Virus record (IMG/VR): IMGVR_UViG_3300009502_000019
DNA length: 33,514 nt
From: a virus
Lineage: Duplodnaviria > Heunggongvirae > Uroviricota > Caudoviricetes
Reading direction: 5' to 3' (one strand)
A model generated the notes under the pieces. The model saw only the letters and a program-made list of their open reading frames with translations, had not been told where the DNA came from and did no database searches. This document shows positions 1,580 to 7,612 of the stretch, one piece after another. A program made the position numbers and the translations under genes. Every line of letters begins with the position of its first letter. The stretch's first letter is position 1.

Positions 1580-2086
1580 TTAACTCAAATACTTTTCCCA
1601 GAGATCCACTATTTCTCCGAGCTTAATTCTTACAATTTCACGAAATCCACGAGGCCTAGCTGGGGTCCTCATTAGCTTAAGCCCCGACTCAGCTAATGTT
1701 CTGTCATCCTTTGAGTAATTGCATGCTTTGCATGCAGTTACGGTGTTATCCCAGGAGTTTTTTCCACCCTTTGATTCCGGGATTACGTGGTCAATTGTCG
1801 TGTTCTTCGCGCCGCACTTTACACTACAGTATTGGCATTGATAATTATCTCGAAGATGCACGTTACGCTTTGTGTAAGAGACATAGCTGATCCTCTCGAA
1901 CACAACACGAACATATCTTTTGAGACGTATTACCGCCGGTACTTTCATAGTTTGACTAACTGAGTGTACTTCCTTATCGTATTCCTCAAGAACAACAGCC
2001 TTATCAGAGTATACAGCAGAGATTGCAGACTGCCAGTCACACACCCCAAGGAATTGGAAATCTAGGTTGAGCACTAAGCAGCGCAT
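1580..2086 (-). CDS. HNH endonuclease (McrA/HNH_5-like)
   Basis: RDNYQCQYC...TIDHVIPESKGGKNSWDNTVTACKACN. Confidence 0.9.
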   Translation of the reverse strand: MRCLVLNLDFQFLGVCDWQSAISAVYSDKAVVLEEYDKEVHSVSQTMKVPAVIRLKRYVRVVFERISYVSYTKRNVHLRDNYQCQYCSVKCGAKNTTIDHVIPESKGGKNSWDNTVTACKACNYSKDDRTLAESGLKLMRTPARPRGFREIVRIKLGEIVDLWEKYLS

Positions 2087-2763
2087 GTTGTTTTCTCCTT
2101 AAATTTATTAGTAAATAAATCTTTCCAATAGTTTCTGTTAAAGTTCGTTCGGCAATGACACTGTTTACAAAGACTAATTAGGTTACTTAATATGTTGTGC
2201 AACTTGTCATAATCAATGTGGTGCACATTCAAACTACAACCTAAAATAACTAAATGCTCTTCCTCTGTTAGACCACATAACTGGCACTGATAATTATCTC
2301 TTTTCCTAACAGACTCTTTTAGGGTGTTGTCAAATTCCGGTCCATATGGTAGGTTAAGCCCGCCAGTCCAATTAGGATTCTCAGGACCTATCCAACGCCC
2401 GTCATAGCACCCATTTTTCTTCTTAGTATCAACACTTTTCTGTACTGCTTCTTCTGATTTTCTCTTTCCAAGCTGTGCCTCTCGTACCCTTATTTTTTGG
2501 TATTCAGATCCATTTTTACCAAACATAGGGTTACTTGAGCCAACCAACTCTTTTCGTTTCGCACGACAAGCCGTGCACCCACAATCAAGTTTGTGTGTGC
2601 TCGTTCCGCCAGTCATTGTCTTTTCATAACAGGATCTGCATCTCTCCCAGGAACTTGTAACCTGAACTTCATGTCTCATACCACATCCTCCGAGGCACTC
2701 CCTGGTTTCTCGCAGCTTCCTGTCTTTTCTAATCTTACTTCGCTTATATACTCCCGTTGGCAT
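2074..2763 (-). CDS. HNH homing endonuclease with NUMOD-type DNA-binding region
   Basis: Likely start MPTGVYKR (AAGGA SD; the ORF-track extension overlaps a tRNA); NPMFGK motif; C-terminal CQLCG...LNVHHIDYDK..N..NLISLCKQCH. Confidence 0.85.
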   Translation of the reverse strand: MPTGVYKRSKIRKDRKLRETRECLGGCGMRHEVQVTSSWERCRSCYEKTMTGGTSTHKLDCGCTACRAKRKELVGSSNPMFGKNGSEYQKIRVREAQLGKRKSEEAVQKSVDTKKKNGCYDGRWIGPENPNWTGGLNLPYGPEFDNTLKESVRKRDNYQCQLCGLTEEEHLVILGCSLNVHHIDYDKLHNILSNLISLCKQCHCRTNFNRNYWKDLFTNKFKEKTTCAA

Positions 2764-2781
2764 AACAATCCTTTCGATCGT

Positions 2782-2856
2782 TGGTCGGAGTAGGGAATCT
2801 TGCAATCCCAACCTCTCGGTCCCGAACCGAGCGCTCTTCTTTTGAGCTACACTCCG
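2782..2856 (-). tRNA. trnP: tRNA-Pro(CGG)
   Basis: CGGAGTG/TACTCCG, loop TT-CGG-GA, T-loop TGCAAGA, CCA. Confidence 0.92.
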
Positions 2857-4208
2857 TTAAAAATATCCTGCTTTTCAGCGAGATACTTTAGATACACTTC
2901 TTTGTCTTCTCCGAGCTTTAGTTCCCCATTCGTCAGTGCCGCCATCACGAGATCCTTAAGCCTTCCAACCTCCTTACCTCCTGGAAGACTGAATCGCTCC
3001 ATGATAGACAGCCCGTCTAGTGGGCACTTAAGTTCTTTGTAGTTCTTTACTTCCTCGATCCTGTTCTTAAGGTGATCGATACGGGCTAGGTTCATTTGAA
3101 CCTTCTCTGGTCTATGGCTAGTAATATCAGCGGCACTCAGAGCGATCAGCTTGTCAAGATGGGCCCCGGTCTCGACAACGTACCTTCTTACCGCTGAATC
3201 TGACCAGTCTTCCTTGTACAGGTTCGTTCTCATGTGGTTCCGGACCAAGTACGTTACGTCCTCGATCACCTTCCGCGGCAGCCCGAGCCGACTCAAGATT
3301 GAATAAGCCATCAGAGCCGAAACCTCTTCGTGCCGGTAGAAGTGCACCCGTCCATCCCACTCAGTCTTAACGTAAGGCTTGCCGACGTCATGGAACAACG
3401 CTGCAAACCTTGAAGCTACTTCAGCCGGCGAGTTCTCAACTACTCCTACCGTATGAAGCCATACATTTTTGCTGTGGTACTTGCTGTCTTGGTCCACAGC
3501 ATTAAGTACCGTCAGCTCCGGGATGAAGTAATTGAGCAGCTTGTACTTCAGCAAGTCATTCAGAGCCTCACCAACGTACTTACCAAGCAGTATCTTGGTG
3601 AACTCGTCTAGGATTCGCTCCTTCGGCAGGAACAGAAGCCTGTGTGCTTCACTTGCTAAAGCCTCTCTTACTCCATCTGAATACAAAAACCCAAACCGCG
3701 ACTTGAACCGGATCGCCCTAAGCATCCTGAGCGGATCGTCGCTAAAGATCTCTGCCGCTTTCATAGGGGTCTCAAGGATCCCCTTTGCCAGGTGCTCCTT
3801 GCCTCCGAAGAGGTCTACTACCTCCCCATTTCGATCCATTGCCAGGGCATTGATCGTAAAGTCCCGGCGGATCAGGTCGTCCGCGATCGTTGTTCCCCAC
3901 TCCACAACCGGCCGGCGGTTATCCCTCTGGTACTTCTCGTTTTTTCTAAATGTAGTTGCTTGTATGATGTACCCATCCATAACAACTTCTATTGTTCCAA
4001 AGGCTTTTCCTACATCGTGTACTTTGTAACCTGCTTTTTGAAAGACCTTTTCAGTATCGTCTGGAAGAAGGTTAATAGCAAAATCCAGATCATCCGTGTC
4101 TTTTCCAAGCAGCTTGTCACGGACTGTGCCACCAACCAAGTATATGTCAGCGTCTTTGAATAGTGAAAATACCTTTTCTACTACCCTATCAGTGATAGTT
4201 TCAGGCAT
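2847..4208 (-). CDS. cca: CCA tRNA nucleotidyltransferase with HD domain
   Basis: YLVGGTVRD..DLDF, RRDFTINALA, DDPLRMLRAIRF, HT...FHDVGKP motifs of class II CCA/poly(A) polymerase family. Confidence 0.93.
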   Translation of the reverse strand: MPETITDRVVEKVFSLFKDADIYLVGGTVRDKLLGKDTDDLDFAINLLPDDTEKVFQKAGYKVHDVGKAFGTIEVVMDGYIIQATTFRKNEKYQRDNRRPVVEWGTTIADDLIRRDFTINALAMDRNGEVVDLFGGKEHLAKGILETPMKAAEIFSDDPLRMLRAIRFKSRFGFLYSDGVREALASEAHRLLFLPKERILDEFTKILLGKYVGEALNDLLKYKLLNYFIPELTVLNAVDQDSKYHSKNVWLHTVGVVENSPAEVASRFAALFHDVGKPYVKTEWDGRVHFYRHEEVSALMAYSILSRLGLPRKVIEDVTYLVRNHMRTNLYKEDWSDSAVRRYVVETGAHLDKLIALSAADITSHRPEKVQMNLARIDHLKNRIEEVKNYKELKCPLDGLSIMERFSLPGGKEVGRLKDLVMAALTNGELKLGEDKEVYLKYLAEKQDIFNGV

Positions 4209-4906
4209 CTTTTTACCGCTGCTTTCTGTAGTACTTGGTTAACTTCTGGACTTCTGCCTAATGTCCATCCGGTGCTTAAATAGTGCAATACTTGTTCTTT
4301 GCGTACGAGCCGGCTCTCTTTTGTTTTTAAATTATGTATGTGTTTCCGCCCAATATGTGCAAGCCTGTTCTTCTCTGTTTGATCTTGTGGCTTTGTTCGG
4401 CCACGTTGCACTTTGCTATTTTTGTTTCTTATTTCAACCGCCCTGTCCACCCCATACTTCTCTGAATAAGTTTTACCTTTGTACTCCCCACGCTTGTACA
4501 TGCAGAAACAACAGATGCAAGTGTCTTCATTGTGCCCGAGTGCTGATAGTGTTTTCCCGACCCGTGCTTCGGACACCCATGGTTTAGGGCCACTCTTTCT
4601 CAGCTTGGTTTCCTCTGAGTCAGGTCCCCATGCTCCGTTTCCGCCGACTGTAATATTGTAACCGGTAGCTCTATCTGTAGAATTAAATTCAGCAATATAC
4701 TTTCTTTCCAAGCGGTCTGCGTCCTCTTGGTTCTGTGCTGTTGCTAGTGTTTCTCGTGTAAAGCCACCTTTTCCATGTTCTTTTATTGCAATTTTTAACA
4801 GTTTTCCGCTTCCAAGATATCCAGGTCTTGCATAGCCAAATTTCTGACCAATGTACACTTTACCGTTAAATTTATTGGTTGTTTTATATATAATCCACTC
4901 ACTCAT
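4181..4906 (-). CDS. GIY-YIG homing endonuclease
   Basis: Likely start MSEWIIYKTTNKFNGKVYIGQ (AAGG SD); YLGSG, GYNIT motifs; NUMOD3-like SEETKLRKS. Confidence 0.88.
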   Translation of the reverse strand: MSEWIIYKTTNKFNGKVYIGQKFGYARPGYLGSGKLLKIAIKEHGKGGFTRETLATAQNQEDADRLERKYIAEFNSTDRATGYNITVGGNGAWGPDSEETKLRKSGPKPWVSEARVGKTLSALGHNEDTCICCFCMYKRGEYKGKTYSEKYGVDRAVEIRNKNSKVQRGRTKPQDQTEKNRLAHIGRKHIHNLKTKESRLVRKEQVLHYLSTGWTLGRSPEVNQVLQKAAVKRCLKLSLIG

Positions 4907-4920
4907 ATCATGCCTTTCAT

Positions 4921-4994
4921 TGGCTGACCTGCAGGGATTCGCACCCCAATTTTTCGGTTCAGAGCCGAACGTCCTACTGTTGGACGACAGGTCA
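4921..4994 (-). tRNA. trnQ: tRNA-Gln(CTG)
   Basis: TGACCTG/CAGGTCA, loop CT-CTG-AA, T-loop TGCGAAT, G73-CCA. Confidence 0.92.
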
Positions 4995-4998
4995 ATGT

Positions 4999-5073
4999 TG
5001 GTCGGGGTGGTGAATTTTGAAATCACGACCTCTCGCTCCCAAAGCGAGCGCTCTGCCTCTGAGCTACACCCCG
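4999..5073 (-). tRNA. trnP: tRNA-Pro(TGG)
   Basis: CGGGGTG/CACCCCG, loop TT-TGG-GA, CCA. Confidence 0.94.
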
Positions 5074-5787: not shown

Positions 5788-5874
5788 TGGAGACGGCTGT
5801 CGGACTTGCACCGACGTGTGGATTGCTCCAACAGGTTTTGCAGACCTGCACATTCGCTGCTCTGTCAAGCCGTC
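5788..5874 (-). tRNA. trnC: tRNA-Cys(GCA) with long variable arm
   Basis: GACGGCT/AGCCGTC, loop CT-GCA-AA, U73, V-arm TGGA-GCAA-TCCA, T-loop TGCAAGT; 87 nt. Confidence 0.88.
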
Positions 5875-5875
5875 A

Positions 5876-5964
5876 TGGAAGCGGAGATGGGAGTTGCACC
5901 CATCAGCTGCTTTTGGCAGCTCCGGCTTATGAGACCGGTTAGCCCACTGGGGCTCGTCTCCGCA
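5876..5964 (-). tRNA. Non-canonical CAT-anticodon tRNA with long V-arm and 5-bp D-stem
   Basis: (T)GCGGAG/CTCCGC(T), D-arm AGCCC-CAGT-GGGCT, loop CT-CAT-AA, V-arm AGCTGC-CAAAA-GCAGCT, T-arm ATGGG-TGCAACT-CCCAT, U73-CCA. Confidence 0.8.
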
Positions 5965-5991: not shown

Positions 5992-6065
5992 TGGCGGGCC
6001 AGCAAGGTGACGCTCCCTGGTCTTCGGTTTTGGAGACCGACGTTCTACTGTTGAACTACTGACCC
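5992..6065 (-). tRNA. trnW: tRNA-Trp(CCA)
   Basis: GGGTCAG/CTGGCCC, loop CT-CCA-AA, T-loop AGCGTCA, G73-CCA. Confidence 0.9.
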
Positions 6066-6520: not shown

Positions 6521-6528
6521 ATAAAAAT

Positions 6529-6813
6529 ATTTGAGAACTATAACCCGGGTTCTGTAGTTACCTTTCAGTAACTGCTAATCATCTGTCTAAGCTCCAAACC
6601 CGCTACTATTGACTGAGTAAGTCAGTAGCCTATTTTGGATTGCATCATGCAAGGATTGCCAACGTTTCACTCCCACTAAAGGGTTTCGTCACTGTGGCTC
6701 TATACTCTCAGTCTTTCAACTGGTCAAAGTTATTAGCTTTGATGCACTACTCTTGATGCCCGGAGTTTCCTCGAATATCCATTGCAGATACCCGCGATTA
6801 GCCGTTCTCAAAT
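6529..6813 (-). ncRNA. rnpB: RNase P RNA (compact bacterial-type)
   Basis: P1 ATTTGAGAAC/GTTCTCAAAT; P4 strands GAGGAAACTCCGGGC (6772-6758) and ACAGAACCCGGGTTA (6555-6541) with a compensatory C-G; GCCACAG, GTGAAAC, GGCAATCC, CAAAATAGG and AGACAGATGAT conserved blocks in the right order. Confidence 0.9.
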
Positions 6814-7490
6814 TTTACTTTAATGCATCCACAATTAAACATCCTACCTCGTATCCATCCTTCTTTCGTATAACCTTGAAGTGCGTCTTCTGTAACAAGT
6901 TTAGATTGGTGTAGTTTTACATTTGAAATCCACTTCTTACCCTTCCAGCTGTTCCGATTTTTTCCGTTAGTACAACCCCCCGATCCTGGAAAAAACTTTC
7001 TACCTCTTATCCAACCATTATTGATATAGTCTGAAAACTCTTCTTTATTAGCCCATCTAGATTGTTTTAATTGTAAGTTAGATATCCACTTGTGCTCTGC
7101 CGTTCGTCCAACTTTTCCAAACATTCCATTCTTTTTACCCGCATGATTTCCATGACTAGCACTTTCTTTCATCTTCTTTCTAGTTTCTTCTGAAGCTTTC
7201 CAACCAGGACAACCGTCTCCGCCATCAGCTAGGTTATATACGTTATCTTTTCCAATGTAATTTCTGCACTCAGCGACATACTTTATTTCTAGCATGTCTA
7301 ATGTAATTTTATCATTAGCATACTCTATTGCTTTTACACGAAAATTATGTTTACCGTACTTTTTGATGGCTTGCTTTAAGTAAGATCCACTACCAAAATA
7401 TTTAGGATTAAACTTACCTTTCTTTTGACCAACATACAGTTTACCATTGACCAAGTTAGTAGTCAGATAAACATATCCGTACATGTTCAT
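6798..7490 (-). CDS. GIY-YIG homing endonuclease
   Basis: Likely start MNMYGYVYLTTNLVNGKLYVGQ (GGAG SD); YFGSG, YNL..GG, SEETRKKM; two C-terminal KWISN...GWIRGR repeats. Confidence 0.88.
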   Translation of the reverse strand: MNMYGYVYLTTNLVNGKLYVGQKKGKFNPKYFGSGSYLKQAIKKYGKHNFRVKAIEYANDKITLDMLEIKYVAECRNYIGKDNVYNLADGGDGCPGWKASEETRKKMKESASHGNHAGKKNGMFGKVGRTAEHKWISNLQLKQSRWANKEEFSDYINNGWIRGRKFFPGSGGCTNGKNRNSWKGKKWISNVKLHQSKLVTEDALQGYTKEGWIRGRMFNCGCIKVKFENG

Positions 7491-7500
7491 AGCACACTCC

Positions 7501-7527
7501 AAAAAAAGAAGGGCACCTTTCGGGTGC
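7501..7527 (-). terminator. Intrinsic terminator-like hairpin in leader of GIY-YIG gene
   Basis: GCACC-CGAAA-GGTGC followed by CCTTCTTTTTTT. Confidence 0.5.
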
Positions 7528-7612
7528 TTGTAGGATATCCGGTTATGGCTATCCAACCCTACGGGTGCCCTAAAAATAGGCATAAAAATACCGAAGTCCT
7601 ACAAGCAACTGC

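Follow-up and report, generated by a model that had tools for sequence, protein, structure and literature searches.

The stretch of phage DNA analysed here (the window, 33,514 nt) belongs to a 46.8-kb IMG/VR record, which is itself a fragment of an uncultured freshwater phage of approximately 200 kb, as the same CCA-adding enzyme occurs on contigs of up to 202 kb. In the window, ARAGORN detected 15 tRNA genes, each of them on the minus strand, and the tRNA island of the phage, taken over the 46.8-kb record, comprises about 30. Within this island lies a gene for tRNA-Cys(GCA) with an enlarged variable region, the sole tRNA-Cys in the array as covered by the 46.8-kb record (genome about 200 kb). 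The original prediction had placed a CAU tRNA next to it, and such a gene does end one base upstream; the two are presumably co-transcribed (Table 1).

On the other side, an ORF for a homing endonuclease of the HNH type begins 14 nt after the CCA of tRNA-Cys. In the syntenic islands of related phages this ORF is absent between the Cys and Lys genes of L004, L005 and L169, and L170, L171 and L172 have unannotated gaps of approximately 230-330 nt at this place. The island also harbours a gene for RNase P RNA, which may be the 5'-processing ribozyme for the tRNA array, and further homing endonuclease genes. A 281-aa ORF (4181-5026, minus strand) has been predicted as a gene on public contigs. Both tRNA-Gln (4921-4994) and tRNA-Pro (4999-5073) overlap with its 5' part, however, and the true start of the ORF probably lies further downstream.

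Table 1. The tRNA-Cys gene, its parts and neighbouring features (window positions unless a contig is named)
Feature	Position	Strand	Remarks
tRNA-Cys(GCA), 87 nt	5788-5874	minus	ARAGORN; Rfam RF00005, 47.8 bits
Encoded CCA of tRNA-Cys	5788-5790	minus	
Discriminator U73 of tRNA-Cys	5791	minus	
T arm of tRNA-Cys	5799-5815	minus	unusual loop UGCAAGU (G at position 55)
Variable region of tRNA-Cys, 16 nt, UUGGAGCAAUCCACAC	5816-5831	minus	ARAGORN structure
V hairpin UGGA-GCAA-UCCA of tRNA-Cys	5819-5830	minus	4-bp stem
Anticodon GCA of tRNA-Cys	5839-5841	minus	inside loop CUGCAAA
CAU tRNA (Met according to ARAGORN)	5876-5964	minus	also with long V-arm; ends one base before G1 of tRNA-Cys
HNH homing-endonuclease ORF, 143 aa	5342-5773	minus	CxxC zinc motifs; weak Pfam HNH_3 and HNH matches, below curated cut-offs
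HNH gene	1580-2086		clear Pfam matches
HNH candidate, weaker	2074-2811		below Pfam cut-offs
GIY-YIG homing endonuclease	6798-7583		
Phage CCA-adding enzyme	2847-4208	minus	PolyA_pol head, RNA-binding and HD domains
RNase P RNA, reduced type A	6525-6813	minus	inside tRNA island; Rfam RF00010, 134 bits
tRNA-Ile(UAU), 90-95 nt	823-917	minus	long variable arm, A73; also L004:12853-12942 and L090:10747-10837

Structure of the tRNA-Cys gene

The original prediction, made from the letters alone, described a class II-shaped tRNA-Cys that combines the cysteine identity set of GCA and U73 with a 16-nt variable region containing a GCAA-capped stem. ARAGORN and Rfam agree with this description, and the hairpin is confirmed to the base. 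With permissive filters the gene scores well above the gathering score of the Rfam tRNA model (47.8 versus 29 bits), the extra bases being aligned as an insert within the variable region. In the ARAGORN structure, an acceptor stem of 7 bp (GACGGCU/AGCCGUC) and a T stem of 5 bp (GUCGG/CCGAC) give a 7/5 branch; the D stem has 3 bp, and the anticodon stem has 5 bp (CAGGU/ACCUG) plus G26-U44. The acceptor, anticodon and T stems have standard pairs at 17 of 17 positions. The V hairpin, followed by CAC and then the T stem, is seen in the MFE fold and the centroid fold alike. The anticodon and discriminator represent the major identity elements for CysRS, whereas the variable region is not the 4-5 nt loop of a class I tRNA. 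The gene is not an assembly artefact, since it recurs unchanged on contigs of two other samples (L002 and L003; three samples in all). It is important to note that an Rfam scan of the whole window with fast filters overlooked the gene, and annotation pipelines can miss long-arm tRNA-Cys.

The elbow of the tRNA also deviates from the norm. The D-loop (region 5850-5865) has AG in place of GG, matching the G at position 55 of the T-loop. When 1,129 distinct tRNAs from the collected loci were compared, G55 was paired with an AG D-loop in 21 of 24 cases, as against 25 of 1,081 for T55. Because of this association, the elbow represents a coherent alternative contact between A18 and G55 rather than decay. 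The same A18/G55 elbow is present in tRNA-Trp (5992-6065) and tRNA-Gln (4921-4994) of the window.

Sister phages and the origin of the variable arm

Sister phages were retrieved with the CCA-adding enzyme as anchor, using a protein search and a profile (54-75% protein identity). Neither the CCA-enzyme protein alone nor the exact tRNA pattern revealed close relatives in IMG/VR, and a profile scan of metagenomes yielded distant homologues only (31-40% identity) and added no syntenic arrays. The islands of the sister phages are syntenic, with the order Ser-Ser-(Ser)-Trp-(Met)-Cys-Lys-Lys-Gln followed by the CCA enzyme. Their syntenic tRNA-Cys genes are 74-75 nt long with variable loops of 4-6 nt (L004, L005/L089, L090-L092, L093, L169, L170/L171 and L172), which makes the 16-nt region here a net increase of 10-12 nt.

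As MAFFT wrongly put the insertion within the anticodon stem, the sequences were re-segmented by structure with a script. Across eight orthologues the stems diverge widely yet always pair, with many compensatory changes; the acceptor stem begins with GAC in five of them. Since the stems are kept and U73 and CUGCAAA are invariant, the gene family is under tRNA-type selection, and the copy of this phage is otherwise free of defects. Three of the sister genes lack an encoded CCA (L172:1610-1684, L090:5053-5127 and L093:4725-4799), which fits the retention of a CCA-adding enzyme in every island; this phage and four others encode the CCA.

Given that the syntenic orthologues in seven sister phages are class I, the V-arm is a recent, lineage-specific gain within this phage lineage. 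The long-arm stem is found in one lineage of the clade only and shows no covariation of its own. Outside the V region, identity amounts to 31-37 of 49 positions, alike for the syntenic class I orthologues and for unrelated long-arm genes. The tRNA-Cys of L172 has a short variable loop and a T-loop of the sequence UGCAAUU (UGCAAGU here), and both genes have a D-loop without GG. Because this syntenic short-loop gene has the same A18/G55 elbow and a similar D-loop, the comparison favours an arm inserted in place over one imported with a foreign gene. A tRNA-Tyr origin, through changes of GUA to GCA and A73 to U73, was ruled out by the orthology to class I tRNA-Cys. The ordinary form at the same position in sister phages dates the gain of the arm and supplies matched controls.

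Arms are not confined to tRNA-Cys in this clade. The CAU tRNA is long-armed in this phage and in L005/L089; tRNA-Ile(UAU), a further class II-like tRNA whose anticodon is not that of Ser, Leu or Tyr, in this phage, L004 and L090/L091, but 76 nt long in L005; tRNA-Asn in L007 and L093; tRNA-His in L172 (L172:5336-5423, an 88-nt tRNA-His(GUG) with a GUAA-capped arm); and tRNA-Lys in L090-L092. Class I forms of the CAU, Ile, Asn, His and Lys tRNAs occur in sister phages, and the hairpin arms are sporadic. Conversely, several phage tRNA-Leu are merely 75-77 nt long and lack the usual long arm (L005:18305-18624; G000:C1:43032-43107, outside the window). As arms have been gained sporadically on several tRNAs and are missing from several tRNA-Leu, arm presence is evolutionarily labile in these phages.

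Two further observations concern the sister islands. L172 encodes an 89-nt tRNA with a CUA anticodon (L172:105-193), which ARAGORN designates 'Pyl' and which may be an amber suppressor. A 114-aa ORF with an RF-1 (peptide-chain release factor) domain is located inside the tRNA island of L005 (13630-13974) and L006 (4513-4857).

Long-arm tRNA-Cys in phages and cells

Textbooks and current reviews confine long variable arms in bacteria to the tRNAs for Ser, Leu, Tyr and Sec, and they regard the arm as the hallmark by which SerRS recognises its tRNA. The survey pattern for GCA tRNAs with long V-arms began with CTGCAAA and ended with a canonical T-loop and TCCA; the gap between CTGCAAA and the T-loop restricted the variable region to 13-22 nt. 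Genes whose CCA is not encoded or whose T-loop departs from the canonical form, among them the gene at 5788-5874, escape this pattern, and the counts are lower bounds. In IMG/VR, ARAGORN confirmed a long-arm tRNA-Cys(GCA) of at least 82 nt in 101 of 118 loci among the matches listed; in the 80 tabulated loci the genes are 84-93 nt long. At least 81 distinct phage sequences, which form at least 52 clusters at 80% identity, were obtained, and U73 is present in 81 of 81 among the matches listed. Most stems comprise 3-4 bp, and GNRA loops cap 47 of the 77 V-arm hairpins (61%) among the matches listed. The tRNA-Cys of the window matches the modal design of these 81 sequences: a 7/5 branch, GCA, U73, a variable region of 13-21 nt and a 3-4-bp stem that is often GNRA-capped. 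To estimate the frequency, we refer to a sample obtained with a wider gap and unbiased by arm length, in which 7 of approximately 117 confirmed phage tRNA-Cys (about 6%) are at least 82 nt long.

Cellular genomes give a different picture. Among the matches listed from 185,579 species genomes, 20 of 120 loci contain a real long-arm tRNA-Cys; 11 of these stand alone and nine lie in dense arrays with 6-27 tRNA genes per 8 kb. Eight of the first 80 cellular loci inspected by sequence are 92-93-nt genes of the selC* type from Desulfobacterota-like bacteria. The rarity of such arms outside Ser, Leu, Tyr and Sec tRNAs, as implied by the original prediction, is thus borne out in cellular genomes. It does not extend to phages, where the design recurs in at least 52 clusters and is also present in cultured phages. 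A BLAST search of the gene at 5788-5874 against GenBank phages gave one partial tRNA-Cys match only. A Xanthomonas phage match to another long-arm Cys query proved to be a true tRNA-Ser(UGA). Contigs L180, L240, L254 and L260 each have two kinds of tRNA-Cys within a few kb, one of ordinary length (71-77 nt) and one with a long arm (88-92 nt).

Function of the long-arm tRNA-Cys and comparison with known tRNAs

The gene at 5788-5874 probably encodes a cysteine decoder. A search for synthetase domains in the 46.8-kb record revealed neither a CysRS nor a class II (SerRS-type) enzyme, and CysRS is likewise missing from the three records of sister phages examined, of which two are complete. This gives no sign of a dedicated phage synthetase; the CysRS of the host is therefore the presumed charging enzyme. 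Synthetases of class I, to which CysRS belongs, bind the tRNA such that its variable region points into the solvent, and the arm should therefore be tolerated. On the other hand, CysRS of the E. coli type responds to the tRNA core, namely the G15:G48 pair; here, the arm and G15:C48 alter that core, which counts against the reading as a cysteine decoder. Cys codons (UGU and UGC) make up 1.9% of 9,676 phage codons, and the phage genes use all three standard stop codons. The gene is no evidence of a changed genetic code, and none of the observations points to removal of the extra segment by splicing or to charging by SerRS.

The main determinants for CysRS are U73 and GCA, and in minihelices U73 is sufficient by itself to confer cysteine identity (PMC9976931). 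SerRS recognises the presence and size of the long arm and not the anticodon (PMC9976931, PMC7609411), and it relies on arm size together with G73 (PMC7609411). Long-arm allo-tRNAs with G73 or U73 have been proposed as possible Ser acceptors (Mukai et al., PMC5389517). From this angle, the long arm could turn the tRNA into a SerRS substrate that places serine at cysteine codons, by deliberate mistranslation or recoding. We consider this very unlikely, as U73 was found in 96 of 96 long-arm tRNA-Cys examined, whereas 57 of 81 Ser tRNAs of the same loci have G73. These Ser tRNAs mostly have arms of 4-7 bp and one unpaired 3' base; the arms of the long-arm Cys tRNAs have 3-4 bp, in many cases flanked by three or four unpaired bases, and are nearer to tRNA-Tyr in geometry. 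In the same data set, the arm of the gene at 5788-5874 resembles the Tyr type and not the Ser type (4 bp, three unpaired 3' bases); together with U73, this argues against its assignment as a tRNA-Ser. Moreover, the arm is borne by an orthologue of ordinary tRNA-Cys genes, and Ser-for-Cys substitution would be costly because Cys codons encode zinc-binding CxxC motifs in phage ORFs, among them those of the adjacent HNH protein. It is slightly less improbable, albeit still highly unlikely, that the gene is decaying or has a role outside translation, for example as a processing spacer or decoy, and that the insertion is a neutral scar tied to the adjacent homing endonuclease. The proximity of the HNH gene in an island riddled with homing endonucleases, the non-canonical D-loop and T-loop, and the failure of the fast Rfam scan to detect the gene would be in line with such a scenario. 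However, its stems are perfect, the CCA, U73 and anticodon loop are conserved, the elbow variant covaries, and the insertion folds into a clean GNRA hairpin, as it does in many other phage long-arm tRNA-Cys among the matches listed; the gene is also the only tRNA-Cys of the array within the 46.8-kb record.

A different question is whether the arm is adaptive, with cysteine still being carried. The arm could provide escape from a host nuclease or toxin that cleaves tRNAs, or it could be a mark for the tRNA machinery of the phage. The repeated independent gains in a single clade on Cys, CAU, Ile-UAU, Asn, His and Lys tRNAs, the enrichment in phages (101 of 118 viral versus 20 of 120 cellular pattern loci being real, among the matches listed) and the GNRA caps, which suggest a selected shape, together hint at selection on the arm. 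Furthermore, phage tRNAs are known to counteract defences directed at tRNAs, among them PARIS and retron effectors, yet the published escape cases rest on changes in the anticodon loop and not on V-arms (PMC11464382, PMC11555353, PMC10264068). In addition, the host is not known to have a nuclease that specifically targets tRNA-Cys, and sister phages do with a class I tRNA-Cys. An escape or marking function is thus conceivable but, in our estimation, rather unlikely, and the broader proposal that short GNRA-capped arms are a selected, repeatedly gained phage feature that sets phage tRNAs apart from those of the host is likewise rather unlikely. If it were true, the arms on Cys, CAU, Ile, Asn, His and Lys tRNAs would help to evade host defences that cleave tRNAs or, alternatively, would favour handling by the phage-encoded RNase P RNA, CCA-adding or repair enzymes. 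The window would then capture a recent arm gain for which the class I sister genes are natural controls, and the arm would add to the ways in which the tRNAs of phages diverge from those of their hosts a new one that does not involve the anticodon loop.

Taking all this into account, the gene is likely to encode a functional elongator tRNA-Cys of a large phage, the extra arm being a tolerated add-on that is repeatedly gained and lost. In this scenario, the starting point would be an ordinary phage tRNA-Cys of class I, whose variable loop acquired a small GNRA-capped hairpin. The tRNA would be transcribed with its island neighbours, probably trimmed at its 5' end by RNase P, and probably charged with cysteine by the host CysRS by way of U73 and the GCA anticodon, so as to read UGU and UGC in phage mRNAs. 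The arm is probably no obstacle for CysRS, EF-Tu and the ribosome, and it may have been retained for changing how host or phage factors see the tRNA.

The phage long-arm tRNA-Cys design is recurrent and not a one-off, and it appears to be undescribed: in the literature open to search we found no paper describing a class II-like tRNA-Cys with a 7/5 branch in phages. A cysteine tRNA of this kind shows that the Ser/Leu/Tyr/Sec rule is looser in viruses. The present analysis contributes a dated gain with class I sisters, a frequency estimate of roughly 6%, the GNRA preference and the A18/G55 covariation.

The nearest published case is the selC* tRNA-Cys (Mukai et al. 2017, NAR, PMC5389517), which shares the long V-arm, U73 and the GCA anticodon with the phage tRNA-Cys. 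It is the precedent for a long-armed tRNA with Cys identity elements that works in translation; a UCA form of selC*, together with an engineered CysRS variant, is reported to have allowed an opal codon to be read as Cys (or Sec) in E. coli (PMC5389517). However, the selC* tRNAs are 92-93 nt long and have a Sec-like 8/4 branch, a long D stem and a V stem of 6 bp, in contrast to the 7/5 branch and 4-bp arm observed here. A Sec-like 8/4 reading of the gene at 5788-5874 was ruled out by its 7 + 5 bp, its 3-bp D stem and the inability of U8 to pair with C76. The settings differ as well: selC* genes stand alone in anaerobic bacteria of the Desulfobacterota and allies, beside selB*, whereas the tRNA-Cys of the window is neither stand-alone nor linked to selB* or Sec and lies in a phage tRNA array among homing endonucleases and a CCA-adding enzyme.

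Among cultured phages, Caulobacter phage CcrPW (MH588545, 140602-140686) has a long-arm tRNA-Cys of 85 nt, and Brevundimonas phage vB_BpoS-Kabachok (ON529852, 194767-194853) one of 87 nt, both annotated simply as 'tRNA-Cys'. Five Brevundimonas phages carry the 87-nt form, with GAAA-capped arms as in CcrPW. Like the gene at 5788-5874, these tRNAs combine GCA, U73 and an encoded CCA with a short GNRA-capped V hairpin, but they have canonical GG and TTCGA elbows, and their caps are GAAA instead of GCAA. They belong to other phage groups, with no kinship to the present gene beyond similarity at the tRNA level.

The closest counterparts by position are the class I tRNA-Cys(GCA) genes of the sister phages (L004, L005, L090, L093, L169, L170 and L172), which, like class I tRNA-Cys in general, have the same CUGCAAA loop, U73 and 7/5 branch. 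The sister genes also occupy an identical slot of the array, Trp-(Met)-Cys-Lys-Lys. They differ in having 4-6 nt where the window has a 16-nt hairpin region, and the A18/G55 elbow is common to L172 only. With the bacterial class II tRNAs (Ser, Leu and Tyr) the gene shares the variable arm, whose size and flanks are akin to those of tRNA-Tyr (3-4-bp stem, two to three unpaired 3' bases), whereas its anticodon and discriminator are those of Cys. The class II tRNAs are not its source; it descends from a class I tRNA-Cys.
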